A stretch of 64,000 bases of DNA from Fibrobacteria bacterium (GCA_043745805.1 JAYTSD010000028.1:32001-96000); one strand, 5' to 3'. Positions 1 to 48,758 are shown, counted from the first letter of the stretch. Numbers and translations: made by a program. Notes: generated by a model not told the origin, from the sequence alone.

Positions 1-32
1 ATTCACATGTATCAACTTTCAAAATCGAAAGA

Positions 33-2360: not shown

Positions 2361-2369
2361 GGAGTTGAG

Positions 2370-2822
2370 ATGGTCGGTTTGTTTAGAGGTATGGTTCTGT
2401 GTTCTGTAATAGCAACTCTTTTTGGATGCGGTAAAGAAACTGAACCAGAACCCTTACCCCCCTTAGTAGTCTCCGAGCTAAAAGCGTGTTGGTATATCGT
2501 TGAAAGTAAATCTGGTTGTGTTGAGATGTGCTTCGGGGGGGGGGGCACTTATTATACCCGTTCAAATAATGCTTCATCTAAAGGTGGTGAAGGACTAGGA
2601 AAGTTCAAAGTAACGGGAAATTTAGTACAAATTCGATTCCAATCTAGGTCACTCGTGAATTCGTATATTGACTCTGTGTTTATCCAATGGAACTTTTTTA
2701 TTCAAAGCGATTCGCTTAAAGATTCTAACGGGGATAATATGTACATGCGTTCAGATTCCACCCACAATTGCGGCCCGCACTGGCTGATATTTTCAAAGCC
2801 TGCTGATTGGGATAGTGTTTAA
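2370..2822 (+). CDS. Predicted lipoprotein, unknown function
   Basis: RBS AAGGAG upstream, hydrophobic signal with lipobox LFGC, G11 tract at 2535-2545. Confidence 0.7.
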   Translation: MVGLFRGMVLCSVIATLFGCGKETEPEPLPPLVVSELKACWYIVESKSGCVEMCFGGGGTYYTRSNNASSKGGEGLGKFKVTGNLVQIRFQSRSLVNSYIDSVFIQWNFFIQSDSLKDSNGDNMYMRSDSTHNCGPHWLIFSKPADWDSV

Positions 2823-2848
2823 GTCTTCATAAAAACAAAAGGGAAATA

Positions 2849-3577
2849 GTGCAAACATTTTTACTTCTTACATTGTTCTTTGGAATTCCATTTAACCCCT
2901 TTATTTTGCAAAATAAACAAACACCCTCAATGATTATTCAAGAATATGCCGGAGTCCAATGGGAGACGACTTTTGATTGGATAAATGATACTGTTATGAT
3001 TAAAAAATACAGTCGGCCAGCAAAAAATATAACTATAAGCGTTACCTATATAATGAACAAAAAAGGTTATGTCCAAAGATTAGAAGGGGTGAATTCAACT
3101 ATTCAAACAATATCTTATGCGTATGATAGCAGTAATAATTTGTCATCGGTTCAAAAGGACGAGTTTGTTTTTTATAAAAACTCAGAAATTGATTCTGTTC
3201 GCCAAAACATCGGGCAAGATTTGGAAATGTTTAAGATTAGACGTGCAAATGACATGATTCAATCCATAGTTAAATACACTAAAAATTTTGCGACCACAGA
3301 TACATATAAAGATTCGATTTCATATACTTATCAATCCGACAAATATATTTTTGCAAAAAATGAAAGTTCTAAAAAAATTGATACTGCCTTTTTTGAAAAT
3401 GGATTGCTTGTGAAATTGTCCTTCCCAAATGATTTTGACGGTGGTTCCATTTATACTTTTACTTACCCTAAAAGCGTAAATATATTGTCTAAGGAATATC
3501 ATAAAAAAAATAAAAGGATCTCATTACAATCGATTATTAAATCAATTCAAGGGCGCAATCCGATCATGCTTGATTGA
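2849..3577 (+). CDS. Hypothetical secreted protein with Tyr/Asp/Ser-rich beta-strands and a basic C-terminal tail
   Basis: 242-aa ORF with GTG start, N-terminal hydrophobic segment, YAYDSSNNLSS/YTY motifs and a Lys-rich tail ending SIQGRNPIMLD. Confidence 0.6.
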   Translation: MQTFLLLTLFFGIPFNPFILQNKQTPSMIIQEYAGVQWETTFDWINDTVMIKKYSRPAKNITISVTYIMNKKGYVQRLEGVNSTIQTISYAYDSSNNLSSVQKDEFVFYKNSEIDSVRQNIGQDLEMFKIRRANDMIQSIVKYTKNFATTDTYKDSISYTYQSDKYIFAKNESSKKIDTAFFENGLLVKLSFPNDFDGGSIYTFTYPKSVNILSKEYHKKNKRISLQSIIKSIQGRNPIMLD

Positions 3578-3895
3578 GTGAAGTGCTGTGACCTACATTC
3601 CGACACCCTCCTGACCACTTTTTGGGTTAAGCCCATACATCCCACTGTAATCCCCACATTTGTGGCTGTTGATTTAAGCAGAGGTTAATGGGTCATCAAC
3701 ATTTTTCCGGGTAGTTCTCGTATTGATTTTGGATGCATTTTTCAATTCGAAAAAACAAGACAGGTCAAAAATCAAACCGTAATTCTTTTTTAACTCGAAT
3801 TAATCTTGTATTTAATCATTATTTAACTCAAAAACCCAAACTCAATAAATAATTCTTAAAAAATACAGCAACCGAAGTGGTTTTGCTTTAATTAA

Positions 3896-3915
3896 AATAG
3901 TATTTAAATACTATT
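3896..3915. promoter_or_regulatory. Perfect 20-bp palindrome, candidate operator of the T4SS-like operon
   Basis: AATAGTATTTAAATACTATT, 16 bp upstream of the ATG at 3932. Confidence 0.5.
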
Positions 3916-3931
3916 AATATAAAGTGAAATT

Positions 3932-4870
3932 ATGTTTTACCTCGGCTCGACACTCAATCACCAATCTCACAAAAAAGCAATAATCATTTCAGCATTTTTA
4001 ATTGGAAGCATCCTAGCTATGCCAGTAATAGCTGATCCAGGAGTAAATGGTTCATTCAGCTTAAACGAAACAGTGAACACAAAAAAATCCATTCGTAAAA
4101 TATGGAGCAACTTCTTAGCAGGCTATCAACAAGCCCGTAATGCTGCACAGTCCATGGTTCGCCAGATGCAGCTCACAGCGAGCTTGGCTAATTCCATGGA
4201 GCAAAATCTAATAGCCTGGGAAAGCGTCGCAAAACGCACGGAAGCACTTTTACATGCTGATATCTGGGATGAAAATCCAATCACAGAAATAGAAAAACTA
4301 GAAGAGAATCTTTTTCAAAAATCCGATGACTTGCTTTATAACCGAATTCCCAATGCCCGCCAAAGTTCTAAGAACTTAAATAAAGTCCGTCGTGATTGGG
4401 TTAATGGTCTTGGTTGGGGAGATGACCCTGTGCCTGGTACAGTAGATAAATCACTTCGTGAAGCACTTGGTTTCATAGCATTAAGCCCAGGGCAAAGACC
4501 ACAGCAATCAAGAGATAAAACCACTTTCGATATTCGTAATGGTGCAATAGCCAAATCAGGAGCAAGACAAGATCAAATGGTTTATATGGCAGACAATACC
4601 GATGCGCATTTATCCGCATTAGGTACTTCGCTCGCCAAATTAGAAACTTCCGATCAAAAAACCATCTCTGATATGAATGTGCAACTTTCCGAAAATGATT
4701 TTGTGCAAGGACAAATGGAGGTGAGGCAGAATATGGATAAACTTGAACTCTATACGCATATCCTCTTAACAAAAGCTTCTGATTATAACCGTATGGGTCT
4801 TGCCGCTTATGCAACTCTTCAACCCCTTTTGCTTTTATCTGATGAATTAGAAAGACAGAGGGGCAGATGA
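3932..4870 (+). CDS. Secreted helical protein, VirB5/TrbJ-like position (paralog of 15167-16114)
   Basis: Signal peptide, Gln/Asn-rich helical composition, first gene before the VirB6-like genes. Shares NLxxWxxVxKR..WD..LE..FxKxDxLL with 15167-16114. Confidence 0.5.
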   Translation: MFYLGSTLNHQSHKKAIIISAFLIGSILAMPVIADPGVNGSFSLNETVNTKKSIRKIWSNFLAGYQQARNAAQSMVRQMQLTASLANSMEQNLIAWESVAKRTEALLHADIWDENPITEIEKLEENLFQKSDDLLYNRIPNARQSSKNLNKVRRDWVNGLGWGDDPVPGTVDKSLREALGFIALSPGQRPQQSRDKTTFDIRNGAIAKSGARQDQMVYMADNTDAHLSALGTSLAKLETSDQKTISDMNVQLSENDFVQGQMEVRQNMDKLELYTHILLTKASDYNRMGLAAYATLQPLLLLSDELERQRGR

Positions 4871-5946
4871 AAAAGTTATTGCATGTCACTCTTTCATTTT
4901 TAAAAAAGTTTTCAATAATCATTCTCTTAAATTACGGATTTGGATTTTCAGAAACCGATCAAACCACTGCGCCCCTTGGTCAATTTTTCGATCCTGACAA
5001 TGCGGAAAATATCAATAAAGTTCAATCAGGAGCGCAAACGGCTAAGGATGCAAAAAAGGGGAAAGACCTTGTGAGCCAAGGGAAATATAAAGACTTAGCT
5101 GCGGATTTATTTCTGAAATACCAGAACTCAAAAGTGGGGCTGATGACGCTTATCCGCAAAGTTCAACAAAAGACTTCGGATGTCATTCAAAAGGCTTCGG
5201 AGCGCGTAGATAAATGGCGTACAACTGTTCCAAAAATAAAATCATATACACAGAAAACCATTCGCTATACGGATGACACCTATAATTTCGCCAAGACTTT
5301 TGAAATGTCCGACCTATGGGATATAGACAGAAACTTTTCCAAAGAAATGGAATGGAGACTCAAGCAAGGCCGTCGACTGGGGCTTTCCATTTGGGATTTT
5401 CTGATTTCACGTATTCAAAGAGATGATTTTTTAAAAGGTATAGAGAAAATCCTTTATCCAGATTATACGGTTGAGTTAAACAAATCCGCATTACATGGTT
5501 TTCAATACGATGATAAACCTTCGGAAAGTGAAAAGGTTCCCATTTTCATTATCCATGAATGCCTTGATGTTTTAAACACTGTACAGCAAATGGCAGAAGC
5601 CGAACTTTCTCCTTCTGAATTATCACCGACTCTCACTAAAGAACAATTTGATACCCATCGTATTCGCGAAGCGCTATTCGATCCAAAATCAGGTTACACC
5701 GACCAGGTGGCACTTCGGCAAGACATACTCAATAAGCAATATGAGCTTTCAACACGCTTATCCATTGTTCAAGATAAAATTGCACGCTTAGAAATTCTTT
5801 GGGGAAAACTGGCAGTGCAAAGACTTGAATCTAAAGAGAGAAATACCTCAGCCATTGCAGGAGAAATAAACAAACTCACCGGAGTGGAATTAAACCCCGA
5901 TGCCTGGTTACTTGAAAAATTTGGATTAAAGGACCAAACACCATGA
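4867..5946 (+). CDS. Secreted helical/coiled-coil protein, possibly a distant VirB5/TrbJ-like paralog
   Basis: Signal peptide, ATGA overlaps on both sides, helical. LEILWGKL resembles MEIVWAHL of 15167-16114. Confidence 0.45.
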   Translation: MKKLLHVTLSFLKKFSIIILLNYGFGFSETDQTTAPLGQFFDPDNAENINKVQSGAQTAKDAKKGKDLVSQGKYKDLAADLFLKYQNSKVGLMTLIRKVQQKTSDVIQKASERVDKWRTTVPKIKSYTQKTIRYTDDTYNFAKTFEMSDLWDIDRNFSKEMEWRLKQGRRLGLSIWDFLISRIQRDDFLKGIEKILYPDYTVELNKSALHGFQYDDKPSESEKVPIFIIHECLDVLNTVQQMAEAELSPSELSPTLTKEQFDTHRIREALFDPKSGYTDQVALRQDILNKQYELSTRLSIVQDKIARLEILWGKLAVQRLESKERNTSAIAGEINKLTGVELNPDAWLLEKFGLKDQTP

Positions 5947-6809
5947 CACCTCTCGAAGCTGTAAATGAATTAGCTGCAATGAGTATAAAAGGAAGCTTTT
6001 GGAATCCCTATCGCTTCCTCAATGAAAATGTTTTTCTCTTTAATGATTTCTTAAATAAAATTATTCCGCTCACTGCGGGTCTACTCATTTTCTTTTTTGT
6101 TTTGGAAATGCTTCGGCATCAGAAAGCTTTCTTAGAGGGAGGAAGCACTTCTTCTTTGAATGGGTATTTCTTTTGGTCTGCGGTACTCGCTACATTTTTA
6201 ACAGCCCCTACACTTTATTTTTATGGTGTTCGCCTCGTCATAGAATTAGCGGCTTCTATTGCATCAGCTATTCATAATGCCGATGTAGATGCAATGGATA
6301 TGGATATTCAAAACCTCATGAAAGCGGTTTTGTTATCCACTGAAAATCCTATTTCACTCTTCACAGCATTTTTAGAACTACTTACACCGGTGGGATTTTT
6401 AACAGTCGTGGCCTATTACTTGGTGATAGCGGTGCTTTATCTGTTACCCTATGTTCAAGCCATGTTCATCGCTGTCTTTGTGATGCTAGGTCCCATTTTG
6501 CTTCCCTTTGCATTATGGTCTCCAACACGTAGTGTTGCTAAAAAATGGTTTTTGTCGCTACTTAGCGCGGCTTTTATTTCCGTATTTGGCATGATTGCTT
6601 ATACGGCAATTTCTGTCTCAGGTTTATTATCCAATATGGCAATGGCGGGGGAGAAACATATCCCATCGTTGGTTTACAGCTTTACCACTTTGGCATTTCT
6701 CTTAACCATTGTATGGTCATCCTATCGTTTATTCGGAGCGCTTACAATATCGGTTAATCATGGCTTTGGATATGTTATGCGTCCTTTAAGAAAATTCGGA
6801 GTTTTCTAA
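5943..6809 (+). CDS. VirB6/TrbL-like polytopic membrane protein (paralog 1)
   Basis: Multiple TM segments. QAMFIAVFVMLGPILLPFALWSPTRSVAKKWFLSLL matches the VirB6/TrbL/TraJ core pattern. Confidence 0.7.
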   Translation: MTPLEAVNELAAMSIKGSFWNPYRFLNENVFLFNDFLNKIIPLTAGLLIFFFVLEMLRHQKAFLEGGSTSSLNGYFFWSAVLATFLTAPTLYFYGVRLVIELAASIASAIHNADVDAMDMDIQNLMKAVLLSTENPISLFTAFLELLTPVGFLTVVAYYLVIAVLYLLPYVQAMFIAVFVMLGPILLPFALWSPTRSVAKKWFLSLLSAAFISVFGMIAYTAISVSGLLSNMAMAGEKHIPSLVYSFTTLAFLLTIVWSSYRLFGALTISVNHGFGYVMRPLRKFGVF

Positions 6810-7822
6810 TGGCTGCATTACAAGACGCATTTCAAGAATCTGTTTCCGAACTTGGCAAAATGTCCAGTCTATGGAATCCCTTTGCTGTAATTGATCTTAA
6901 GGGTATTGAGGGGCATACTGTATTTTCTGCAATACTACCTCGCATCATAGTCATAGGCATGGGGATAATGCTTCTCATGGTTTTATTACGCATTCTTTTG
7001 TTTTTAACGAGAACCATTTCCGGTCAAGATAGTGGACAAAGTGTTTTAGGAACGGCTACGGAAATATCCATAATCGCAGCATTACTTGTGAGTTACCCCG
7101 ATTGGATAAGGTTAATTCCACAAATATTTACTTCCATTGGTAAAGGGATTTTAGAATCATCAGTATCGGATCTCACAGCTCAAATATCCGGGGCCTTGGT
7201 GCAGATGGGGAATGAATCGGCATCCGATTTTCCATTCTGGTCAGCAGAGGCTATTTCTATAACGGTTATCAGTCTCTTGGCTTCACTATTGTCGACGATA
7301 GCATTGGTACTCATTTGGGTTATAGCCAAGCTACAAGCTTATCTATTCACTTTCTGGTATCTCTTAGGACCTATTGCACTTCCGACTTTGATTTTTCCTC
7401 CACTTAGCCATATATGCCGTATTTGGTTTTCCACTTTACTGGGTGTGTCTTTTATGAGCGTAACCGGACCGCTACTCTATGTCATTTTGCTTCGCACGCA
7501 TTGGATGGTCAATGCCTTTGCCGCAGGAGGGGAGATGGATGCAATAACCTGCTTAGTTTTTGCATTGCTTTGTCTTTTGACTTTGGTCTCAGTACCAGTT
7601 TTATCCATGAAGATATGGAACGGCATTGAAAGCCGTGTCTTTGCCGGAGGAGCAGGTGCAAGCGATGGTATAGGTAAAACTGTTTCAATATTGCAATCAG
7701 TCGCTACGACAGCCAAATCCACTTATCAAAATTTGAGGGGTGGAAATAAAGACGTTTCGATCCCTAGCACAGAAAAATCAAGTGAACGAAGTATTAGCTC
7801 TGATTTAAGAGGAAGGGGTTGA
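6809..7822 (+). CDS. VirB6/TrbL-like polytopic membrane protein (paralog 2)
   Basis: QAYLFTFWYLLGPIALPTLIFPPLSHICRIWFSTLL core, multiple TMs, TAATG overlap with the previous gene. Confidence 0.7.
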   Translation: MAALQDAFQESVSELGKMSSLWNPFAVIDLKGIEGHTVFSAILPRIIVIGMGIMLLMVLLRILLFLTRTISGQDSGQSVLGTATEISIIAALLVSYPDWIRLIPQIFTSIGKGILESSVSDLTAQISGALVQMGNESASDFPFWSAEAISITVISLLASLLSTIALVLIWVIAKLQAYLFTFWYLLGPIALPTLIFPPLSHICRIWFSTLLGVSFMSVTGPLLYVILLRTHWMVNAFAAGGEMDAITCLVFALLCLLTLVSVPVLSMKIWNGIESRVFAGGAGASDGIGKTVSILQSVATTAKSTYQNLRGGNKDVSIPSTEKSSERSISSDLRGRG

Positions 7823-7824
7823 TT

Positions 7825-9783
7825 ATGGCTTACACACCTATGAATGCCTACACAGATGCAGTAGCAGAACTCTCTTCAGTGCAAGCGATTTGGAATCCAT
7901 TTCAACTGATTTATATACCCTCCGAAGGAGGTGATATCAACCAATGGGAAATATTGCTTCATTCTATGCAGTCGATAGGTATAGCCCTTCTTGTCCTTAT
8001 GGCGGCTCTTAAATTCGTAAAAGTCTATCTCGATGAATTAAATCATATTCCCGCGATTACCACGATATTTGGAATAACTGTGGAAATGATTTTGGTAACG
8101 GTTTTTCTCCTTAATTATACCTGGTTTGCAGAAATATTCCCGATGCTCTTTCATCGCATAACTACGCAAATTCTAAATGCTTATGACGCGAGCTTAATGG
8201 ATCAAGTGATAGCGTCTTTACAATCGGTGGGAGCTGAGAAATCGCAGGAAACCAAATGGTTTTCCCTCAATGCACTCGCAGCTTCCATCCCCAATATTTT
8301 ATCTACTGCCGCCGCAGGATTAGCCCTTGCATTGTATTGGGTGATGTCCAAGTATCAAGCCCTCTTATACACATTCTGGTATCTCATCGGTCCGATATTA
8401 TTGCCCTTTTATCTCTTTCCACCCTTTCGCGGTGTAGCTGAAAGATGGTTTTCTTCATTGCTCGGTGCTTCTTTCATGGGTGTTGTGGGCAGTCTCATGT
8501 TTGTCTTAATGGCTAAAGCGCAATGGCTAACCAAAGCTTTTAGTGCAGGAGCCAATACCAGTTATATCACCGCATTAGTTTTTTCGCTTCTCACCTTATT
8601 ACTTATGGTCAGCATACCCAGATTATCCAATTCCATTTGGGATGGCATATCTTCATCGCTTACACAAGCTATGGCAACAGGTAGCATGTTGGGCGGTGCT
8701 GCAACGGCAGTCACGTTGGGTGTGGCTGGTGGCGCTACTCAAGCTGCGGGTTCAACTATTCGCGGAGGTACTGGCATGGCGGGAATTATTCACCGCTATG
8801 GCAATACCCAAAACTCCGGCCTATCCCAAGGAAAACGAGTGCTTGATGCAATCCGTAACCGTAATAGTTTTGCGCAGGAAGGAAAAGAAAAAACACGCGG
8901 AGAAAAAATGTTATCAGGACTTTATGAAGCTGGGTCAGGGCTTAAGGAAATGGGACATGGCGTGCTTATGTCACAAATGCCTTCTTCAATTCAAAGGGCT
9001 GAAAGAGCCGTGAATCAAGCTTTAAAAGCGAAAGAACCTTTAAAGCAAAGACGTAAAGAAGAAGAGGCGGTCAGAACTCATGTTGAGAACGCTTTAGGAA
9101 AAGACATAGCCAAGAGCATGCTCTTTCCTGAAAAATGGAGACTCTCACAAAGAGTAGGACAAAGTTTTGAAGAGTCCGTTGCAAAGACAGCCGAGGGCTT
9201 TATTCGCACTCGAAAAATTCAGGACATGGATAAAAATCTTAGGCAAGCAGCTACAAATTTAGCAGGCCCCGAAAAAGCCGCAGCACTTGATATTCCAAAA
9301 AACTTTCGCTTAAAACCAAAACGTGGGCAAAGCGAAGAAGAAGCATTAAAGTCGGCAGCCCTTGGTCTATTGCGTAAACAAGGTGGCATTGATACTGGAC
9401 TAAAAAAGAAATTGGATCGTGAAGCCATTGGCAAAGAAGCGATTCGAATATTAGGTGCACAAAGAGCCAAACAAGTTCAAATACCATCGGACTGGGGAAT
9501 TGTCGCTCGTAAAGGACAAACAGCACAGCAAGCTCTAGAAGGCTCTACTCGTGCTTTATTGCAAAAGCAAGGACTCATCGATAAAAAAGAAGAGAATACC
9601 ATTGCGCTTAAGTATCGCTATGCATTGGCTAGAAAACGTGTCGCAATTGGATCTAAAGGCTCTGCTAGCTCTAACACGGCTACGGGTGCCAATGGTGTGA
9701 AAAATCCCAGCACTTTAAACAATTCAAAAAGTAAACGTAACTCACAAAGTAAATCCAAAAATCATGGAGGAAAAAAATTATGA
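7825..9783 (+). CDS. Extended VirB6/TrbL-like protein (paralog 3) with a Gly/Ala-rich linker and a basic three-repeat C-terminal extension
   Basis: QALLYTFWYLIGPILLPFYLFPPFRGVAERWFSSLL core, then a TrbL-like GGAATAVTLGVAGGA stretch. ATG at 7825 preferred over TTG at 7819. Confidence 0.7.
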   Translation: MAYTPMNAYTDAVAELSSVQAIWNPFQLIYIPSEGGDINQWEILLHSMQSIGIALLVLMAALKFVKVYLDELNHIPAITTIFGITVEMILVTVFLLNYTWFAEIFPMLFHRITTQILNAYDASLMDQVIASLQSVGAEKSQETKWFSLNALAASIPNILSTAAAGLALALYWVMSKYQALLYTFWYLIGPILLPFYLFPPFRGVAERWFSSLLGASFMGVVGSLMFVLMAKAQWLTKAFSAGANTSYITALVFSLLTLLLMVSIPRLSNSIWDGISSSLTQAMATGSMLGGAATAVTLGVAGGATQAAGSTIRGGTGMAGIIHRYGNTQNSGLSQGKRVLDAIRNRNSFAQEGKEKTRGEKMLSGLYEAGSGLKEMGHGVLMSQMPSSIQRAERAVNQALKAKEPLKQRRKEEEAVRTHVENALGKDIAKSMLFPEKWRLSQRVGQSFEESVAKTAEGFIRTRKIQDMDKNLRQAATNLAGPEKAAALDIPKNFRLKPKRGQSEEEALKSAALGLLRKQGGIDTGLKKKLDREAIGKEAIRILGAQRAKQVQIPSDWGIVARKGQTAQQALEGSTRALLQKQGLIDKKEENTIALKYRYALARKRVAIGSKGSASSNTATGANGVKNPSTLNNSKSKRNSQSKSKNHGGKKL

Positions 9784-10436
9784 TAAGCAAAGAGCGTTAT
9801 CGCACCGACCTGCCTTGGTTTGCAGGACTTTTAAAAGAAAATCAAGCTTATAAACTAGCTTTAGCCGTATTTCTGATTTCCAATCTTTGTTTGGTTGGTA
9901 TGCTCTTTTGGGAAATAAAAAAGGGCAAAGAAGTATATGCTTTTGATTCAAGTTCCGGTCGCACTTATGTTACGGGGCGCATTACTCCAAAACACTTTGA
10001 AAATATGGTGCTATATGCTACAAAGACTTTTACAACTGATTTCTTGAACTATGACTATCTCTATTTAGAACAAGCGAGACTTTCAGCCTTTAGACGTTTA
10101 TCCCCTGCGCTTCGTCAAAAATTTAAAGAACAATTAAGTGCGGAAGATCCTATTAAAGAAGCCATATCCGGTAAGACAAAATATGAATTGTCTTTTTTAA
10201 CGGAGCCAGCTCTCATTGCAAGAGCGCATCCCAATTATCGAACATTCTGCAAAGTCAAAAGAACCATTCATTTTGCAGATGGCAAAAACTCGGAGTCGGA
10301 GCATAACCTAAGGATTACCTGGAAAATGTTGGAGTCAACACCAGATAGACCAGACGGGCTTTATGTAACGGATATCGAGCGTATTAGTCCGAATGATAAA
10401 GAAACATTAAATGCCATTTTAAACCAAATACAATGA
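9780..10436 (+). CDS. VirB8/TraK(Bacteroidetes)/TraE-like bitopic T4SS protein
   Basis: Single N-terminal TM, EVYAFDSSSG after the TM, FTTDFLNYD helix, C-terminal STPDRPDGLYVTDI matching the VirB8 NPxGLxV pattern. Confidence 0.7.
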   Translation: MISKERYRTDLPWFAGLLKENQAYKLALAVFLISNLCLVGMLFWEIKKGKEVYAFDSSSGRTYVTGRITPKHFENMVLYATKTFTTDFLNYDYLYLEQARLSAFRRLSPALRQKFKEQLSAEDPIKEAISGKTKYELSFLTEPALIARAHPNYRTFCKVKRTIHFADGKNSESEHNLRITWKMLESTPDRPDGLYVTDIERISPNDKETLNAILNQIQ

Positions 10437-11281
10437 GGTGTATCATGAACTTATTTTTTTTCTTCTCTGTAATTTTATTCAATACTCTTTGGGCCGAAAA
10501 AGTCTTTACCATCAAAGCGGCCAAGGACGAATACCCGCTTAATTGGGAAACCATATACAAAGTCAATATTTGCAATGCGTATAGCACTGTCATAGAACCT
10601 CCACAAGGATATGTTCTTTCAGATATGATACTTGGCGACTCCAAACTATTTAAAGCAGAGCGCAGCGAGAATCGCGGAATTATTAAAAGGCTTGCGCCAG
10701 ATAATGCGAGAACTAATCTCGTGATGATACTCGAAGGGCCTGATAAGGTAAGTCATAGCTTAACCTTTGAATTAACAGGTGAAGAAAATCCCAAGATTGC
10801 GAATGTGCAATTTGTAATCGCGCAAGATAAAGGGAAGGATAAAGCTTTAGAAGCCGCAAGAACCCTTTATGAAAATCAATTGCAAATGACTTTAATAGCA
10901 CAGGAGAAAAGACTGGGAAATCTCATTCGCGATAAAACTCTAGAAAACATGGAGCCTTTTCACCTTATCACTTCCGAGTTTACTATGGAAAAACTTGGAG
11001 CCAAGTTTACTTTGGAAACGGTGACCAATAGCGGAGGCTTTGGATATGTCTATGTCTTCACAACAGCTGTAGAGCCTGATTTTCAAGTGGTGCATTTAAC
11101 CGGCATTCAAGGAAAAGATATAGCAAAGACTGTAAGGCTATTCAGAGCTATGCCAAGGCGCGACGGAATGCTTTATATCTATGAAACCACACCCTTTATT
11201 AAAAGTCCCGAAGGACATAAATACACCTTTAATTTTCGTGTGTATAAAGAAACCACATCCATCAAAGCCACCGTTGAATAA
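10433..11281 (+). CDS. VirB9/TrbG-like T4SS outer-core protein
   Basis: Signal peptide; STVIEPPQGY..DMILGDS..ENRGIIK..TNLVM pattern; sits between the VirB8- and VirB10-like genes. Alternative start at 10445. Confidence 0.6.
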   Translation: MRCIMNLFFFFSVILFNTLWAEKVFTIKAAKDEYPLNWETIYKVNICNAYSTVIEPPQGYVLSDMILGDSKLFKAERSENRGIIKRLAPDNARTNLVMILEGPDKVSHSLTFELTGEENPKIANVQFVIAQDKGKDKALEAARTLYENQLQMTLIAQEKRLGNLIRDKTLENMEPFHLITSEFTMEKLGAKFTLETVTNSGGFGYVYVFTTAVEPDFQVVHLTGIQGKDIAKTVRLFRAMPRRDGMLYIYETTPFIKSPEGHKYTFNFRVYKETTSIKATVE

Positions 11282-11295
11282 AGAAGGAGAATATC

Positions 11296-12573
11296 ATGGA
11301 ACCGTTATTGCCAAATCAAGAACCTAATCAAGAATATGAAAATGAAATGGAACGCAAAATGCGAAGTATGGAAGGCTTGCCACCAGAAGAAAATGGCCTT
11401 AGTAAAAAAAGAAAAATCCAAATCGTAATAGTCGCCATTGTGCTAATGCTGATAATGGCTATAGTTCTTTTTTTGATGGGAAGTAAAAATTCACAAAAGC
11501 CGGATGAAAAAGTCTCAGCCGCCAATCGTGGTCTAATGCAAGCGGAGTCCATTCGTAGGCAAAAAGAATTATTCGATGAAAAGTCAAATCGTAAAAATAT
11601 GGGGGAAGAGGGCTTTACCCATAAACTGCCCATGAATAATGAAAACTTAAATCCTATGGATTCATCGGGAGTCGTTCTCGATGCAATAGAGCCTGTTTTG
11701 GAGAATAATAAATTTTCTGAAAATCTTGAAACTATTAAACCTTCGCCAACGCATAGCAATGGTTTAATCAGCAAATTAAATCATGTGAAGAGCAATAAGA
11801 AATCTTCATCATTGATTTCAAGTAATGCGGATCCAAGTTTCGAAAACAATAATGAATTACTCCCTATAGAAAAACCAAAGGAGTATAAAAACAAACCCGA
11901 ATTAGCATCGAGATTATCCGAAGAATATCAAAAGGCCGTAGCCTATAATGCTTCCGAACAATTGGTATTTACAAAGGATAGAGGAAGCGATGGACAAAAA
12001 GATAAAGTGACTATGGTAAACGCTACAGCAAAAATGGGTTCAAGCAATAAGGTTATTGTATCCGCGGGTCAAGAGATGACCGCAGTTTTAAATGAATCTT
12101 TAGATTCGGATTATCCTTCCGTAGCCAAAGCCACTTTAACTTCACCTTCTGAGCTTGTGGGTACTACCGTACTTTTATCCTATAGCTTAGGTAATGAGCG
12201 GGTTACTGCACAAATCATGAAAATGGTATTGCCTCCTAAGGATGGAGAGAAAGCAAAAGAAATAACTTTATCTGCCGTGGTGAAAAGTGGTTTGCCTGGT
12301 TTATCGGGAGATGTCAGTCATCATTGGACTTCCCAAATTGCTGCGGGTGTAGCTAGTGCAGGACTTACGGCTGGTGCTTTAGCTTATGCTGCACAGAACG
12401 GTAGTAAAGACTTAGGTACGGCAGTATTAGTTGCTCCCATGGTAGAACAAAGCGTACAAGGTGTATTAAAGCCTATTAATTATTTAGGACGAGATAGACC
12501 TGTAACGGTAACCGTACCTGCAGGAACGGAGTTCACGATTTTAGTCACCGAAGGTTTTGAGGTAAACCTATGA
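11296..12573 (+). CDS. virB10: VirB10/TrbI-family T4SS core protein
   Basis: N-terminal TM, disordered linker, then AGQEMTAVLNESLDSDYP..GLPGLSGDVSHHW..PVTVTVPAGTEFTILV, typical of the TrbI/VirB10 domain. RBS AAGGAG. Confidence 0.8.
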   Translation: MEPLLPNQEPNQEYENEMERKMRSMEGLPPEENGLSKKRKIQIVIVAIVLMLIMAIVLFLMGSKNSQKPDEKVSAANRGLMQAESIRRQKELFDEKSNRKNMGEEGFTHKLPMNNENLNPMDSSGVVLDAIEPVLENNKFSENLETIKPSPTHSNGLISKLNHVKSNKKSSSLISSNADPSFENNNELLPIEKPKEYKNKPELASRLSEEYQKAVAYNASEQLVFTKDRGSDGQKDKVTMVNATAKMGSSNKVIVSAGQEMTAVLNESLDSDYPSVAKATLTSPSELVGTTVLLSYSLGNERVTAQIMKMVLPPKDGEKAKEITLSAVVKSGLPGLSGDVSHHWTSQIAAGVASAGLTAGALAYAAQNGSKDLGTAVLVAPMVEQSVQGVLKPINYLGRDRPVTVTVPAGTEFTILVTEGFEVNL

Positions 12574-13019
12574 AAACTTTATCCCTATTAGTTTTGCTTT
12601 TGGTTTTAACTCTTCACGCGAATCCTGCTCCCATGCAATGCGAAGAGTTGGCTAAAAGAACCGATGAAACATTTAAAAAAATGGATAATGCCTTAAAGCT
12701 TAAAGCAGGATTGCTACTAGGTGAAATGGAAATGGCTAAAGGGGCTTTGGAAGGATGTATTGGGCAGAACAAACAGGTGAGTATTCATTTAGCTTTGATG
12801 TGGTTCTTAACTGACTTGGGTTTACTGGCAACAAGCATTTTAATCTTATTGCATCAAAAGCGTATGAAACGAGCTATCAGGGTATTATCAGAAATCCTGT
12901 ATTCAAAAGATCCAGCACATTCCTATAAATATGTCCCTTCTCAAACTTTATATCGATTTGCATGGGGATTATTAGGGTTAACCTTTCTCATAGTAAATGG
13001 GATAGCGCTTTTATTATGA
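12570..13019 (+). CDS. Small membrane protein (signal peptide, two Cys, two TM helices), unknown function
   Basis: 149-aa ORF with ATGA overlaps on both sides within the operon. Confidence 0.6.
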   Translation: MKTLSLLVLLLVLTLHANPAPMQCEELAKRTDETFKKMDNALKLKAGLLLGEMEMAKGALEGCIGQNKQVSIHLALMWFLTDLGLLATSILILLHQKRMKRAIRVLSEILYSKDPAHSYKYVPSQTLYRFAWGLLGLTFLIVNGIALLL

Positions 13020-13498
13020 AAACTCTTGGCATAACAATATTGCTTATGATAAGTTTGCTCCTTCATTCAAGCGAAGCTTTTTCTGGATTGGAATTAACCG
13101 TATCAAAACCTTATCCTGGCACAGCACTAGATAATAAAGGGATATACTCCTTATCCTATTTTACCACAGGCTTTTCATTTTGGCCGGGTTTTTCGGAATG
13201 GGGAATAACGGGTATGCCTTCCTGGGGCGGCATTGCCTCTTCTAATGATAAGTCTCAAACCAAAAGTTTTGTTGGGTTATATGGGGGCCATTTATTTCTT
13301 TTGCGAGGTGGCTTTATTCGCCCTGGATTTGAATTGGGTTCGGTGTGGGAAGAAACACAGATGTTACAGGGTCATTCAAACTCAATTGTGAATCAATCCC
13401 AACTTGCGCTCTATTATGCTTTTAAAGTTCAAGTGCTTTGTTTGAGTTTTCTTGTTTCCAATATGGGTTATGGAATAGGTCTTAATTTCAGTCTATAG
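13016..13498 (+). CDS. Putative small outer-membrane beta-barrel protein
   Basis: Likely start ATG 13016 (ATGA overlap), signal peptide, alternating aromatic/Gly strands, ends GYGIGLNFSL. Confidence 0.5.
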   Translation: MKTLGITILLMISLLLHSSEAFSGLELTVSKPYPGTALDNKGIYSLSYFTTGFSFWPGFSEWGITGMPSWGGIASSNDKSQTKSFVGLYGGHLFLLRGGFIRPGFELGSVWEETQMLQGHSNSIVNQSQLALYYAFKVQVLCLSFLVSNMGYGIGLNFSL

Positions 13499-13506
13499 GA
13501 TGAGAT

Positions 13507-15165
13507 ATGAAAAATACAGTTTCGATTTCTCGCCAATCACTTAGGTGTTACTTTAAAGTATTTCTTTTCATATTTTGGTCTTCATTTACACCCCAAATAT
13601 TTTCACAAGATTTTCCATTAAAGGGACAGACATGGGTATTTGTGAATGGACCCAATGAAGAAACCCATATTGTTAAATCAGTTTCTGACTTTGCTCCATC
13701 CTCCGTTATCGTTGCAAAGTTCAATGAAGATGCAACTGCTGATATTCATTACGCGAATTTATCTGGACGTTTTTGTCGTTCAACAGCGGAAGCTATTGAT
13801 ACCATAATCTCTGAGCTAAGAAAAAATGTTCTTCTTCATTCAAAATTGTTTCAAGCCAGTAAACGAAATTTTCCTGACACGGCTTATAGCTGTGATGCGG
13901 AATTGGTTCGCTTAGCAGGAATGCTTCGTTATAATCGTTATGTAGTTAATGGAAATGAAGTAAAGCCCAACTCTAACCCATCCTCATGGCAATGGCTATT
14001 TGACCCACCAGAATGCTATGCCACAAGGCCAGCTAGAGAGCAAGATAAACAAGAAAAAGATTTATGCGAAAATCATTGGTGTGTCGATCCCACGCCAGAC
14101 CCAACCATCCCTTTTCAAGAAACTTGTAATGACACCTATACTGAATGTCATCAAGTGATAGAAGAGTCAGCACTTAAAACTCGCGCTTCCATGCGTACTT
14201 TTTGGAATCTGCATCTTTTCCCCAATATCATATTACATCCCAGGCATCCAGCCACCGAACGTATCATAAAAGAAATCAGTTTGTCAGAACAAGAAGCAGA
14301 AAACTTTAGGCAACAAGCAATTGAAAATCCAAATAATCAAGATTTAAAGATTTATCTGAATCCAGTTATGGATGATTCCGCTTCGGTGTATTTCTCAGGA
14401 CAATTTCTTACTCCCGCATTGAATCCCTATCAAATAGGGTCACTTAGTTTAGATATACAGCCTGAAGGTGAGGGGGCATCGGGATATACCCATGACCCAC
14501 CCATGGCTTTACGTATTGCTTCCGTTGATGATTGGACAGGTTTGCAAAAAGCTTTGTTATTGCCTTTTAGTCGGGATGAAAATGAAAAACAGTTTTTGGA
14601 AAATATTGATACTCGCTGCCCTGGTTGGGTAACAGCAGATAGGCTTATTGGACAAAAAGCGTTTGAAGTTAAAAGTGGCTTGGACGTTACTCTTCCAGAT
14701 GTGCTCCCTACTGAAACACAAGATCCTAGTTGGAAAAAAGTTAGGCAAGAAAGAGTTCTTGTCAATGGAGGCTTTGAAGTTAAAACCATTGTCGATGATG
14801 ATAGAATGATAACGGGGCAAATGGCTTTAGTTAAAAATCTGGATTTTCCATATGGAGACCATTTTTGGAAAGGCTGTCCTGATTTACCTGATACTTTTTT
14901 TAAACTCACTAAATCACAAGCAGCACGTTTATTAAACTTTCCAGTTCCAACCTGTAATTTATCCACCTTGAGTATTTCGGCAGATTTTCATCGCAATTTG
15001 AAAAGTCGTTTTAATAGTGTCGATGACGCAAAAGAAATAGAAATGGCTAATCAAAGAGCTTTGGAGGCAGAGTTTCAATTTGACCGAACGAAAAACAAGG
15101 AAAGACCCGCAGATATTATTTGTCCGGACACACCCTTAGACATCATTATACGCGAGATGCAATAA
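13507..15165 (+). CDS. Cys-rich secreted hypothetical protein (possible adhesin or mating-pair stabilisation analogue)
   Basis: 552 aa, signal peptide, about 11 Cys in the mature part, inside the T4SS-like operon. Confidence 0.55.
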   Translation: MKNTVSISRQSLRCYFKVFLFIFWSSFTPQIFSQDFPLKGQTWVFVNGPNEETHIVKSVSDFAPSSVIVAKFNEDATADIHYANLSGRFCRSTAEAIDTIISELRKNVLLHSKLFQASKRNFPDTAYSCDAELVRLAGMLRYNRYVVNGNEVKPNSNPSSWQWLFDPPECYATRPAREQDKQEKDLCENHWCVDPTPDPTIPFQETCNDTYTECHQVIEESALKTRASMRTFWNLHLFPNIILHPRHPATERIIKEISLSEQEAENFRQQAIENPNNQDLKIYLNPVMDDSASVYFSGQFLTPALNPYQIGSLSLDIQPEGEGASGYTHDPPMALRIASVDDWTGLQKALLLPFSRDENEKQFLENIDTRCPGWVTADRLIGQKAFEVKSGLDVTLPDVLPTETQDPSWKKVRQERVLVNGGFEVKTIVDDDRMITGQMALVKNLDFPYGDHFWKGCPDLPDTFFKLTKSQAARLLNFPVPTCNLSTLSISADFHRNLKSRFNSVDDAKEIEMANQRALEAEFQFDRTKNKERPADIICPDTPLDIIIREMQ

Positions 15166-15166
15166 C

Positions 15167-16114
15167 ATGAAACGCCTTTTAATGTTAATCATTTTTATCC
15201 TAACCTTAACAAGTGCCGATGATTTGCTGCAACCGACAACCACACAGCCAGGGAGCAAAGAAGAAAATGGCGTGGTCACAACCTTAGCTTTAACCTATGT
15301 GAAAATCAGAAACACAGTTCGAGATGCTTACATGTCCATTCAATACACAAGAGCTATGGTGCAAACATTAGATGATCAAAAAGAATGGGTGAAACGAAAT
15401 TTGAAAAGTTGGGATTTAGTGGGAAAGAGGGTTGTAAAGCTAGTCAATGAACCAGGGCGTTGGGATCAGAAGCTGCAAGATTTAGAAGGCATTTTTGATA
15501 AAACCGATTATTTGCTTTGGGAAGAAAGCAAAAACTTTGATGACTTAATGTATAGGCAAGAGCGTTATGCAGAGAAAATTGGTGGACATCTTTCACCTTA
15601 TCTTCCTTTGAATCATCCTTCCTTAACTGAGTTTTACAAATTCAATAGCAGTCTGTATAGAGCGGATCCAGCATGGGTTGCACCCATAGCAGGAGCTTCC
15701 AAAGATGAAAATACGATTCATGCCGAAAGAGAAAAATCGCGTTTACATGGAGCATATACAGCTATGCAAAATATGAGCGAAGGTAAAGTCCGTGATGCAA
15801 CGATATTAGCTGCCTCAAGAGCGCAAGCACAAATAGCTGCTATTCGAAGAATACAGAAAGAAAGAATGCAAAAGTATGGCGAAACCCTAGAGGCTTTGAA
15901 GAATGCTAAAAATGTGAATGCTCAAGAGTTAGGTAAAACCCTTTCTGATTTAAAAGGGATGGAAAATGTTTTGGATGAGCTGGCATTGAATAAGTTGGAA
16001 ATGGAAATTGTCTGGGCGCACTTAGGTACAATGATTTTTGATTTATCGAATACTAGGGCAGGGGAGTTAAGAACCTCAGCTGCCTTTGATGATTTGGCGA
16101 ATAAGTTGAAGTAA
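15167..16114 (+). CDS. Secreted helical protein, VirB5/TrbJ-like (paralog of 3932-4870)
   Basis: Signal peptide. NLKSWDLVGKR..WDQKLQDLEGIFDKTDYLLW aligns with NLIAWESVAKR..WDEN..LEENLFQKSDDLLY. Confidence 0.55.
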   Translation: MKRLLMLIIFILTLTSADDLLQPTTTQPGSKEENGVVTTLALTYVKIRNTVRDAYMSIQYTRAMVQTLDDQKEWVKRNLKSWDLVGKRVVKLVNEPGRWDQKLQDLEGIFDKTDYLLWEESKNFDDLMYRQERYAEKIGGHLSPYLPLNHPSLTEFYKFNSSLYRADPAWVAPIAGASKDENTIHAEREKSRLHGAYTAMQNMSEGKVRDATILAASRAQAQIAAIRRIQKERMQKYGETLEALKNAKNVNAQELGKTLSDLKGMENVLDELALNKLEMEIVWAHLGTMIFDLSNTRAGELRTSAAFDDLANKLK

Positions 16115-16154
16115 TGAGACGTAACACTTTTTTGTTTATGGAGTTGGTGGTAAA

Positions 16155-16379
16155 ATGGAATCGCTTGACCCAGAATACCTTTCCCCAAAGCAACTGGCTG
16201 ATAAACTTAATATGTCCTTAAAATGGGTTGAAAAGCATACCCAAGAACATAGAATTCCTGGCCAAGTTAAAATGGGTCGCGTCTGGCGTTACCATTGGAT
16301 TGAAATCCAGAAACACCTTATTTCAGGGCAATTGTTATTGGAAAAACTCAAATCAAAATTGCGCCAAAAATGGAAATAA
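16155..16379 (+). CDS. Excisionase/AlpA-like helix-turn-helix protein (recombination directionality factor candidate)
   Basis: YLSPKQLADKLNMSLKWV..IPGQVKMGRVWRY is a typical HTH_17/Xis pattern; directly upstream of the integrase. Confidence 0.8.
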   Translation: MESLDPEYLSPKQLADKLNMSLKWVEKHTQEHRIPGQVKMGRVWRYHWIEIQKHLISGQLLLEKLKSKLRQKWK

Positions 16380-16431
16380 ATAAATTACTTTTAGACTTCC
16401 TGCTTAGAGCGCCCATCACCTGAAAGGTATT

Positions 16432-17526
16432 GTGATGGGACTTAATATTAAAAAAATCGGACCCAATAAATATTTCCTAGATGTTCGAGTTAGAGCTATT
16501 TCTGGCCGCCTTCGAGAGCGAGAAACTTTTCTCGGAACAAAACAGGAAGCCGAAGAAAGATTTCTTCAACTTCGAGAAGAGTTAAAGGCCGGAAAGACTT
16601 TAATATGCGCGTTAAAAACATTTGCGGATGTTCTCAATCTCTATAAGGAAAAACGTTTAACCTTACCTGGTAAAGAAATCAGTATCTATGCAAGACTAAT
16701 GCGTGATCTTGGTGCAATAGATCTGAAATCAATATCCCAACGGTTAGATGCTTATATCATGCTTTTGCGTAGATCATCATCAAAAAGGACAGGGAAGCCA
16801 CTTTCCAATGGAAGTATAAATCGACTTCTAACCTTTATTCGCGCTGCTTTTAACTTGGCTGTATCGTTAGAGTATTTGGAAAAAAGCCCAATTAGCAAAG
16901 CCCGATTTCCACGATTAAAGGAGACTCCACGGGACACAATTTTATCTCCACTTGCATTAGAAAATCTTTTTAATGCTATGGAAAAATATGCTCCACATCT
17001 GATATCCATTACTCAGTATGCCTTACAGGTTCCTTCACGAAAATCAGAATTAATCAATATGCGTTGCGAAGACTTAGATATGTTTCACCATGCAATAAGG
17101 GTTAGGAATGGGACTACTAAAAATAATGATGGAATATGGAAGCCAATTCCACCAAATATGCTTTCTTATTTTCGTTCGATTCCCGCAGGTAGCACTTTTA
17201 TCTTCTTCCGAGAAGAGAAAGGTGAATTTTTCCCTTTAGGAGATTTTAAAAAAGCCTGGGCCACTTGTCTCAAACACGCGGATATAAAAGATTTTCATTT
17301 TCACGATACCCGACATATGTCAGCTACCGATTTAGTCAATAATGGTACCCCAGAACAAACTGTTATGCAGATAGCTGGATGGCGTTCTAATATGCTTAGA
17401 AATTATTTTCATCGTGATGGCAAAGTTGCCCTGTCCCTTGTTAAATTTTCTCCGGGGTGGGTACACTCTGGGTACACTTTTGACGATCAAGGGGAAAAAG
17501 CGGAAGTAAATCAAAAATTACGGTGA
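16432..17526 (+). CDS. Tyrosine recombinase / phage-type integrase
   Basis: Catalytic set visible: R (PSRKSEL), K (TTKN), HxxR (FHDTRH), W (AGW), Y (LRNY). Adjacent to the tRNA 3' end. Confidence 0.92.
   Translation: MMGLNIKKIGPNKYFLDVRVRAISGRLRERETFLGTKQEAEERFLQLREELKAGKTLICALKTFADVLNLYKEKRLTLPGKEISIYARLMRDLGAIDLKSISQRLDAYIMLLRRSSSKRTGKPLSNGSINRLLTFIRAAFNLAVSLEYLEKSPISKARFPRLKETPRDTILSPLALENLFNAMEKYAPHLISITQYALQVPSRKSELINMRCEDLDMFHHAIRVRNGTTKNNDGIWKPIPPNMLSYFRSIPAGSTFIFFREEKGEFFPLGDFKKAWATCLKHADIKDFHFHDTRHMSATDLVNNGTPEQTVMQIAGWRSNMLRNYFHRDGKVALSLVKFSPGWVHSGYTFDDQGEKAEVNQKLR
17458..17478 (+). repeat. Tandem 10-bp direct repeat TGGGTACACT, candidate integrase arm-binding sites
   Basis: Copies at 17458-17467 and 17469-17478, about 125 bp from the tRNA 3' end. 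Confidence 0.5.
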
Positions 17527-17570
17527 ATGAGAAATTGAGGTAAATATGGCGAATTTATGTGAATTAAAGC

Positions 17571-17600
17571 AAAAAAAGCCCCTCATTTCTGAGGAGCTTT
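17571..17600 (-). terminator. Rho-independent terminator downstream of tRNA-Gly
   Basis: Minus strand AAAGCTCCTCA-GAAA-TGAGGGGCTTT followed by a T-run. Confidence 0.75.
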
Positions 17601-17676
17601 TGGAGCGGGTTAAGCGACTCGAACGCTCGACCTTCTCCTTGGCAAGGAGATGCTCTACCAACTGAGCTAAACCCGC
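17601..17676 (-). tRNA. tRNA-Gly(GCC)
   Basis: Reverse complement GCGGGTTTAGCTCAGTTGGTAGAGCATCTCCTTGCCAAGGAGAAGGTCGAGCGTTCGAGTCGCTTAACCCGCTCCA: 76 nt cloverleaf, anticodon GCC, encoded CCA. Confidence 0.97.
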
Positions 17677-48113: not shown

Positions 48114-48758
48114 TCAGCGTAGATCTTCGGCCAGAACAGTTTTTCCCGCAAATTTTTCAAGAATAAATATGGCCTGTTCTAAGGGTGTAGGCTTTTGATG
48201 ACGAGCAAAACTTTCCGCTCCTTGCAAAATAAGGGTTAGTGTCGGCACTAAATGAATTTTCCAGCCCATCTCTTCTTTCCAAAAAATATATACCGGCACA
48301 TTTTCGGAACCGGAAAAACCTAACTCGGCTTTTTGCCCATAAATTTTAAAATGGCCTAAATTATTTTTTAAGAAACTGTTTTTAACAGTAGGATTTTGCA
48401 CTAAAAGCTTTTGCAAAATACCTTTGGGATTATCGTTGAAATCGGGATGCTCACGACGTTCGACACGCAAGGCTAAAACACTTAGTATTTCAAAAAAGGG
48501 GCGATCTTTTAAAAAAGCAATGGGTTCGGAACGCGAAGCATACCGCATATCTTCTAGCCAATGAATGGATTCAGAGGAAATATTATGCAAAGTGGAATCG
48601 GTATTGTTTTGCTGCAAGTTTTGGCGAAAGCGCAAAAAAAACTTTTCTAAGGCTATTTGTTCCTGTGAATTTTTTTCCGAACTATCAGGCGGCGGCGGTC
48701 CACTACAAGCGCCAAGTAATAGTGCGAACCCCATAAAATATTTGAGCCAAAGTGTCAT
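48114..48758 (-). CDS. Predicted lipoprotein
   Basis: Lipobox LGAC; ATGA overlap with the upstream gene. Confidence 0.7.
   Translation of the reverse strand: MTLWLKYFMGFALLLGACSGPPPPDSSEKNSQEQIALEKFFLRFRQNLQQNNTDSTLHNISSESIHWLEDMRYASRSEPIAFLKDRPFFEILSVLALRVERREHPDFNDNPKGILQKLLVQNPTVKNSFLKNNLGHFKIYGQKAELGFSGSENVPVYIFWKEEMGWKIHLVPTLTLILQGAESFARHQKPTPLEQAIFILEKFAGKTVLAEDLR

Follow-up and report, generated by a model that had tools for sequence, protein, structure and literature searches.

What would a type IV secretion system (T4SS) do without a motor? This question is raised by a row of twelve genes at positions 3932-16114 of a 64,000-nucleotide stretch of DNA from a Fibrobacteria bacterium (GCA_043745805.1, JAYTSD010000028.1:32001-96000; the window in what follows). 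The first-pass annotation, made from the window alone, had seen three VirB6-like and three VirB5-like subunits but no ATPase or relaxase, and had suggested a non-conjugative system used for contact, adhesion or protein export; its fallback was a split integrative and conjugative element (ICE) with its motor genes to the left of the window. The results presented here argue for the fallback. The twelve genes are very probably the distal half of the mating-pair-formation (MPF) operon of an ICE that resides in the tRNA-Gly(GCC) gene of a Fibrobacterota chromosome. We favour the conjugation machine of an ICE because genes for VirB4, a coupling protein, VirB2, ArdC, SSB and RadC are present on the same contig and strand; because relatives have an unbroken operon that reaches from VirB4 past VirB10; because xis and int genes, tRNA-Gly and an exact 49-bp repeat on another contig (C45) are found; because the patchy distribution (10 of 296 genomes) fits a mobile element; because the core folds and families were confirmed; and because housekeeping genes begin right of the tRNA gene.

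The layout of the row agrees with what had first been noted. Twelve open reading frames (ORFs), all on the plus strand, span 3932-16114, and overlaps are present at eight of the 11 junctions, seven of 4 bases (ATGA or TTGA) and one of 1 base (TAATG), a count that takes the ATG at 13016 as the start of p160 (listed from 12962). Because of these overlaps the twelve genes are probably co-translated. The row is followed, as annotated, by a gene for an excisionase-type helix-turn-helix protein (xis, 16155-16379, plus strand; HTH_17, E 4.9e-6; TIGR01764, E 0.0021), a tyrosine integrase gene (int, 16432-17526, plus strand; Phage_integrase, E 8.6e-19) and, on the minus strand, the tRNA-Gly(GCC) gene detected by ARAGORN (17601-17676), which is the integration target. 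The GC content is even along the region (0.36-0.43). A six-frame search for the Walker A pattern in bases 1-17600 gave a single occurrence, a chance string in the tail of the second VirB6 protein, and no NTPase or relaxase family of Pfam was matched by the proteins of these bases; the reported absence of a Walker A ATPase and of an HUH relaxase from this part is thus correct. A sigma-70 promoter scan upstream of H1, the first gene of the row, gave 4 sites versus 7.3 in shuffled sequences, with a scan that is unsuited to the phylum.

The motor genes are found just outside. The window corresponds to C28:32001-96000 in a genome of 50 contigs that is 99% complete, and the 32 kb to its left contain, on the same contig and strand, genes for p391, the coupling protein, RadC, ArdC, SSB, VirB2, p125, p383, VirB4, p1016 and p410, and then cargo. 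The VirB4-type ATPase (C28:14152-16641, 829 aa) matches TIGR02746 (E 1.2e-59) and P-loop_TraG (E 7.8e-23), with PF19044 at 81 bits against a cut-off of 25.8, and its Walker A motif, GSGSGKS, is unchanged in three orthologs. The VirD4-type coupling protein (C28:2573-4669) matches TraG-D_C (E 1e-11), T4SS-DNA_transf (E 7.9e-9) and TrwB_AAD_bind, all over their cut-offs. In addition, matches were obtained for the TrbC/VirB2 pilin (E 3e-10), ArdC (E 2e-38) and SSB (E 1.4e-30). The 125-aa p125, a two-helix membrane protein, would be VirB3-like by position and topology. Beyond the cargo the order continues with H1, H2, VirB6a, VirB6b, VirB6c, VirB8, VirB9, VirB10, p149, p160, Cys552, H3, xis, int and tRNA-Gly. 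The ATPase is therefore missing only because the window ends where it does and cargo has been inserted. These results contradict the idea of a motor-less, non-conjugative T4SS and bear out the split ICE, with VirB4 and the coupling protein on the same contig and the order contiguous in relatives. As counter-evidence to its proposal the first-pass annotation had itself named an upstream VirB4, coupling protein and relaxase in a set belonging to a known MPF type; VirB4 and the coupling protein are indeed there, whereas a canonical relaxase was not found and none of the MPF types tested fits.

That the two halves belong together is indicated by the gene order in relatives, read by tblastn of the element proteins against related loci. 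In genome G259 the order p125-p383-VirB4-p1016-p410-H1-H2-VirB6a-VirB6b and, on a second contig, VirB6c-VirB8-VirB9-VirB10 through to Cys552-H3 is contiguous (loci L038 and L025). The order from VirB4 to VirB10 is likewise contiguous on a Chitinivibrionales contig (G072; L027 and L039 are the same contig), and in G028 it is contiguous from p1016 on, inside which that contig (L026) begins. In the genome studied here 15 kb, encoding p227, p275, a giant ORF, p150 and p242, separate p410 from H1; since the operon is unbroken in the relatives, the split is an insertion. Two observations were made on other genes in these loci. In G028 the transfer operon is interrupted between H2 and VirB6 by the gene of a HipA-type toxin, which is preceded by a small ORF (L026:5912-7455), and in G259 the place immediately after H3, taken by xis and int in the window, is occupied by a gene for topoisomerase III (L025:10641-12713).

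The sequence after p410 differs in each of four relatives (L004, G251, L036 and G259). The p410-H1 junction is a recurrent cargo site, because its content differs between the giant ORF block of the present genome, at least 28 kb of metabolic cargo in G251 (multicopper oxidase, phosphoketolase, P-type ATPases, an F-type ATPase operon and NnrS) and a 1,561-aa minus-strand ORF in L036. The giant ORF of 3,829 aa occupies C28:22871-34360 (L001:10871 onward) and is open across the window edge, so that only the end of it, the C-terminal 785 aa, is encoded in the window (3-2360, plus strand); these last 785 aa have no Pfam match. Its N-terminal part matches Big_13, FlgD_ig-like and PGAP1-like lipase families, and four repeats of ∼100 aa that contain cysteines are present near the C-terminus. 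A homolog (34% identical) is encoded in L036 upstream of the VirB2 pilin gene, and the giant protein may be a mating adhesin or plain cargo. Between p410 and the giant ORF lie the genes of two small secreted proteins, p227 and p275. Two further small cargo ORFs at 2370-3577 (plus strand) encode p150 (150 aa, lipoprotein-like N-terminus) and p242 (242 aa). Pfam and NCBIfam gave nothing significant for either (a single NCBIfam row of E 0.0045 is at chance level and far from reaching its cut-off), and tblastn found no homolog of them in the 13 related loci compared.

The identity of the core proteins was established by fold or by family. The 218-aa protein encoded at 9780-10436 is a VirB8 homolog by fold. 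Its AlphaFold2 (AF2) model (pLDDT 83.5, from a 17-row alignment) gave 39 Foldseek matches in the PDB at E <= 0.001, with the best E down to 2.7e-6. The top matches are the IcmL-like structure 5cnl, TrwG/VirB8 of R388 and VirB8 of A. tumefaciens (E 1e-5 to 3e-6, TM-score 0.70-0.75 on the target); the VirB8-family structures 5cnl, 8rtd, 2cc3, 4nhf, 3wz4, 6iqt and 5wio were matched before any others, DotI, CagV and TraE are also among the leading matches, and NTF2-like folds from outside T4SSs (ARC6, the CaMKII hub) rank below them. The protein has the architecture that defines VirB8, DotI and TraE, one N-terminal membrane helix followed by an NTF2-like periplasmic domain. At the sequence level no Pfam or NCBIfam match was obtained, the best E in a PDB profile search was 0.23, and a homolog search returned 22 close relatives only, all at 61% identity or more. 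The label VirB8-like given on first reading is therefore borne out by fold and not by sequence search. VirB10 (11296-12573, 425 aa) has an N-terminal membrane helix (residues 43-61) and a C-terminal TrbI domain that exceeds its cut-off (E 6.8e-13; 49.3 bits vs 35), and also matches DotG/IcmE (E 2e-6), which confirms that label as well. The 282-aa protein encoded between these two (10433-11281), with a signal-peptide-like N-terminus, is probably VirB9, as had been proposed; it matches CagX/VirB9 (PF03524) at E 6e-4, and four of six orthologs match too (best E 2.6e-5). Position and these matches speak for the assignment, but every match stays under the cut-off of 34.2 bits and is weak. Profile searches of the PDB with VirB9 and VirB10 gave nothing significant.

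The three VirB6-like proteins, VirB6a (5943-6809, 288 aa), VirB6b (6809-7822, 337 aa) and VirB6c (7819-9783, 654 aa), were likewise recognised correctly, by matches to Pfam TrbL (PF04610; E 1.1e-5, 3.4e-4 and 3e-9, respectively) and by BLASTP paralogy (b versus c 34% identical, E 5e-50; a versus c, E 2e-11). Against the curated cut-off of 25.9 bits, which only VirB6c exceeds (37.4 bits), VirB6a is at the cut-off (25.8) and VirB6b under it (20.9). Each protein has five hydrophobic segments. In VirB6c, which is of the 'extended VirB6' type, these are confined to residues 45-266 and a hydrophilic C-terminal tail of ∼365 aa follows, in which blastp found no internal repeat. All three paralogs are present in all five loci of the same family that cover the region (G000, L004, L005, G251 and G259; VirB6a of L005 is cut by the contig end, and the G259 set is spread over two contigs), while the Chitinivibrionales contig (L027) and G028 (L026) have only two VirB6-like genes. 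In a tree the sequences of the close relatives (L018, G000, L004 and L005) fall into one group each for a, b and c, with supports of 97/99, 96/94 and 95/95; the tree has an open fork and long branches, and the branching between the groups, b and c of G259 and the distant two-copy forms are unplaced in it. Because each paralog forms a supported orthologous group among close relatives, the three genes appear old and maintained and not the product of a fresh duplication. In PMC12857230 the VirB6 of R388 is described as a pentamer capped by a VirB5 pentamer. By analogy, the retention of three paralogs suggests a mixed stalk or alternative stalks; a heteromeric VirB6 assembly, if true, would be a departure from the R388 homopentamer.

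The helical secreted proteins are a different matter, and here the claim of a triplicated VirB5-like subunit is not supported. H1 (3932-4870, 312 aa) is all-helical and secreted or membrane-anchored, with an N-terminal hydrophobic segment at residues 16-34, and H3 (15167-16114, 315 aa), encoded by the last gene of the operon, is secreted and all-helical. A profile of the H3 family (35-row alignment) recognises H1 with an hhalign probability of 95% (E 1.7e-8), indicating that the two are paralogs. The conserved H2 (4867-5946, 359 aa) is unrelated to either by the same method (E 0.66 and 0.27); its orthologs are found in five related loci (L004, L018, L026, L027/L039 and L038), and in the ESM Atlas it reaches only low scores (<= 0.81) to TraW-like and TraG_N-bearing clusters, which is a lead only. 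The N-terminus of p410 aligns with the H3 family (hhalign 69%, E 4.5e-5), so that p410 is possibly paralogous to H3 in this part. The H3 family comprises 51 clusters among 1.84 billion representatives in a full HMMER search. None of 35 members matched a Pfam family of T4SSs, and profile searches of the PDB with this family gave nothing significant. The AF2 model of H3 consists of long all-alpha hairpins (pLDDT 77.6), with a pTM of 0.39 that leaves the overall packing uncertain; Foldseek found no match to it at E <= 0.001, and in VIA-align TrwJ/VirB5 (7o3v_A) ranks 25th with a Z of 9.3, amid unrelated helical hairpins of Z 9-11, i.e. in the noise range. Neither a VirB5 family nor a specific VirB5 fold, a three-helix bundle with an appendage, was thus matched, and the label VirB5-like rests on position and secretion signals only. 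H1 does sit at the VirB5 position of VirB-type operons, and in G259 it directly follows p410.

The remaining genes of the row encode conserved accessory proteins. The small membrane protein p149 (12570-13019) has a signal-like N-terminus and two C-terminal hydrophobic segments, with orthologs in L004, L005, L018, L025 and L028; its Pfam rows are at chance level (E 0.038-0.053, far under the cut-offs). The small secreted p160 (13016-13498; 178 aa if read from 12962) has a hydrophobic N-terminus and could be an outer-membrane protein, which is a prediction only; none of three orthologs matched Pfam at E <= 0.1. Cys552 (13507-15165, 552 aa, 12 cysteines) is conserved and of no known family, with 0 of 4 orthologs matching Pfam at the same threshold and orthologs as distant as 22% identity in Chitinivibrionales. 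The first-pass labels of these two, 'beta-barrel' and 'Cys-rich', are putative and were judged by composition. The left-hand proteins p1016, p125 and p383 had no Pfam match at E <= 0.1 either (two to four orthologs of each), which brings to six the conserved accessory proteins without a Pfam family (Cys552, p1016, p160, p125, p383 and p149).

The right end of the element is at the tRNA gene. The attachment repeat at 17598-17646 consists of the 3' 46 nt of tRNA-Gly plus 3 nt, and copies of these 49 bp were found on C45, one identical (189551-189599) and one at 96% (181698-181746), with no tRNA detected by ARAGORN at either. The exact copy is followed by a gene for an astacin-like peptidase and by cargo that is usual for islands, namely genes for a WYL protein, an E2/ThiF/JAB protein and an HNH nuclease. 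We infer that C45 and C28 are physically linked, in which case integrase and repeats flank the element at its target and the ICE would extend from C45:189600 across a gap to C28:49600, i.e. ∼58 kb plus the gap; its size is put at 50 kb or more. The VirB4-family ATPase and the type IV coupling protein by which ICEs are recognised are both present. In the relative L005 the order H3-xis-int-tRNA-Gly(GCC) is identical, and right of the tRNA gene the window continues with the housekeeping genes YchF, MnmG and pyruvate carboxylase. Three chromosomal ORFs in the window (22527-26657, 48755-51097 and 51094-53625; 1,376, 780 and 843 aa, respectively) have no Pfam match at E <= 1e-5.

Some further observations were made on C45. 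On L003 (C45:178081-198080) partial tRNA-Gly copies at 3621-3666 and 11474-11519 bracket a 7.8-kb RND efflux operon (AcrB, HlyD, OEP), and 22 bp identical to the end of the integrase gene remain there as well; such an arrangement would fit tandem island accretion at tRNA-Gly. The putative left ICE end, L003:14243-19219, encodes a WYL-domain protein, a 391-aa ORF, a fused E2/ThiF(E1)/JAB protein of 755 aa and an HNH nuclease, and looks like a defence module of the ubiquitin-like-conjugation type. An end sequence of 66-67 bp is common to contigs C45, C22, C27 and C31, with the end of C45 resembling the beginning of a transposase gene; this shared repeat probably breaks the assembly inside the ICE.

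Several results weigh against the interpretation as an ICE. None of the relaxase families PF03432, PF08751, PF07514, PF03389 and PF01076 has a match in the whole 99%-complete genome. A candidate is p391, whose gene lies directly upstream of the coupling protein gene, overlaps its start and is kept beside it in four of five related genomes searched. Its N-terminus is winged-helix-like, some of its acidic residues are conserved, and a lead in the ESM Atlas (0.95) points to clusters that carry PF13814 in 12-29% of their members. PMC5357655 treats PF13814 as the family of MOB_C relaxases, which occur together with VirD4 coupling proteins, and PMC3424549 gives it a PD-(D/E)XK fold. The link of p391 to it is weak: two of four orthologs reach PF13814, with a best E of 0.025, hhalign of p391 with two PF13814 proteins of G042 from the same phylum gave no support, and a profile search of the PDB with p391 found nothing significant. 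That p391 is the relaxase is hence a tentative proposal, held with somewhat less than even confidence, the alternative being a relaxase hidden in the assembly gap. Matches to the VirB11 family, VirB1-type lytic transglycosylases and the VirB5 family are lacking among the 50 ORFs scanned. In G251, which is 98% complete, the operon from H1 to Cys552 is intact (L017 and L018, both G251:C61), and VirB4 was not found with a protein query and two family models; G251 could have an orphan half-operon or have lost the other half in binning. Finally, the left end of the element is unassembled, nothing overlaps the start of C28, and the C45-C28 junction, the size and the intactness of the element are deduced. 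Presence and order of the genes are observed; function is assigned from family membership, fold and position, and transfer from the genes alone.

These points open two other explanations. The T4SS could have ceased to conjugate and now serve contact, adhesion or the export of proteins, in which case the giant surface protein would be its adhesin or its cargo. Such a change of use would be in keeping with the failure to find a canonical relaxase in the genome, with a giant surface-protein gene that travels with T4SS genes in two elements at different positions, with the right-hand operon that G251 keeps where VirB4 was not found, and with the several VirB6 paralogs, a feature known from the Rickettsiales rvh system. 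We consider it very improbable, since a VirD4-type coupling protein, ArdC, SSB, xis and int, and attachment repeats are present and intact, since occurrence in 10 of 296 genomes has the patchiness of a mobile element, and since the same set of T4SS genes is found in relatives whose operon does not contain the giant gene. Somewhat less remote, though still improbable, is a decaying ICE that can no longer transfer and whose transfer operon is intact by chance or kept for another use. The state of the genes speaks against decay: every T4SS ORF is full length when compared with orthologs at 55-90% identity, the 4-base overlaps are kept, the three VirB6 orthologous groups are maintained down to a relative with a VirB4 that is 55% identical, and the integrase and xis genes are intact. 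Decay would explain a left part broken by a repeated insertion-sequence-like sequence at the C45 end, the remnant of an island enclosed by partial tRNA-Gly copies in tandem, the 15-kb insertion between the operon halves and the lack of a recognised relaxase.

An ICE with a conjugation machine is the preferred explanation, and its parts would work together as follows. Xis and Int would excise the element at the 49-bp repeats, and a relaxase, for which p391 is a candidate, would nick it, after which the coupling protein would pass the DNA to a channel powered by VirB4. In this channel VirB3, VirB6 and VirB8 would be placed in the inner membrane, VirB9 and VirB10 would span periplasm and outer membrane, and the pilus would be made of the VirB2 pilin. 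The VirB6 paralogs together with H1 and H3, perhaps also p410, would most likely form a periplasmic stalk or pilus base.

How widespread is this system, and is it of a known type? Using VirB10 as query, the system was found in 10 of 296 genomes of the phylum, including the present one, in five of the 31 of its own family and in none of the 151 of the largest family. Two scans for peptide patterns, made in 185,579 species genomes (2 and 6 loci, overlapping), returned only Fibrobacterota (Fibrobacteria and Chitinivibrionales), the patterns being so narrow that relatives in other phyla may escape them. For VirB4 the best model is TIGR02746 (TraC of F-type systems), at 202 bits versus a cut-off of 567; TIGR00929 (92 vs 643 bits) and TIGR03783, the TraG of Bacteroidota (61.8 vs 261.55 bits), follow, and PF03135 (CagE/TrbE/VirB4) has no match in the genome. 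The nearest plasmid-borne relatives of this VirB4 are annotated as TraC and share 22-25% identity. The F-specific families TraU, TraW, TraH, TraF, TraN, TrbC and TraG_N were not matched at E <= 0.01 among the 50 ORFs, and Bacteroidota Tra models other than TIGR03783 were not matched among the 27 proteins scanned against NCBIfam. MPF_G, for which models of the ICE PFL_4xxx type stand, was considered through the NCBIfam scan only, in which no such model appeared. The VirB4 profiles of MPF_T, MPF_F and MPF_B were not matched over their cut-offs, nor were the further marker families tested for these types (VirB11 and VirB5 for MPF_T), and by profile evidence the system fits none of the tested MPF types.

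These results leave part of the first-pass claim of an undescribed T4SS subtype in an organism of the FCB group standing: no tested type fits, all relatives found are Fibrobacterota and no canonical relaxase was found, but the accompanying idea of a motor-less system for adhesion or export does not hold. The parts list is that of a variant in which the core is VirB-like and the ATPase F-like, VirB6 genes number two or three, some eight genes are specific to the lineage and a relaxase is not recognisable; so far it is seen in Fibrobacterota only. That it amounts to an MPF class of its own, confined to this phylum, with a stalk or platform of three VirB6 proteins, H1, H3 and possibly p410 in place of VirB5 and p391 as a non-HUH, MOB_C-like nuclease, is a rather doubtful extension of these data. 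In the titles and abstracts searched no T4SS or ICE of Fibrobacterota is described (supplements of large ICE surveys could list such elements); conjugation in this phylum is essentially undescribed in that literature, and the element provides a concrete parts list for it. Most of the element would escape the profile sets with which conjugative elements are detected. As a natural example of a conjugative machine with several VirB6 proteins, it is of use for understanding how the VirB6 stalk is built, and genetic tools for this phylum of cellulose degraders could perhaps be developed from it.

Among known systems the closest resemblance in layout is to MPF_T (Trw of R388, Tra of pKM101). Taking the canonical VirB/Trw gene order as basis, the genes for pilin, VirB3-like protein, VirB4, the VirB5 position, VirB6, VirB8, VirB9 and VirB10 are colinear; Pfam families TrbC/VirB2, TrbL/VirB6 and TrbI/VirB10 are matched over their cut-offs, the VirB8 fold resembles that of TrwG of R388, and VirB4 aligns to TrwK (E 4e-6). 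The system differs from MPF_T in the absence of PF03135 from the genome and of VirB11, VirB1 and VirB5 family matches from the 50 ORFs, in having three VirB6 genes instead of one, and in at least six extra conserved genes without family. With MPF_F it shares the TraC of F-type systems as the best model for VirB4 and the lack of VirB11, which F systems do not have according to PMC12857230. Unlike MPF_F, it has a TraC score under the cut-off, no F-specific families and a pilin of the TrbC/VirB2 type. With MOB_C relaxases (Replic_Relax, PF13814; restriction-endonuclease-like and not HUH), p391 has in common its placement beside the coupling protein and weak PF13814 leads, whereas its best E to PF13814 is only 0.025 and hhalign lends no support.

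The rvh system of Rickettsiales and the Trw system of Bartonella are chromosomal, non-conjugative systems for effectors or adhesion, the latter without a coupling protein. The present system resembles them in its tandem VirB6 paralogs, one with a long hydrophilic extension, as in the 'extended VirB6' proteins described in PMC12857230. In contrast to rvh and Trw, it comes with a coupling protein, xis and int genes, attachment repeats and a patchy distribution.

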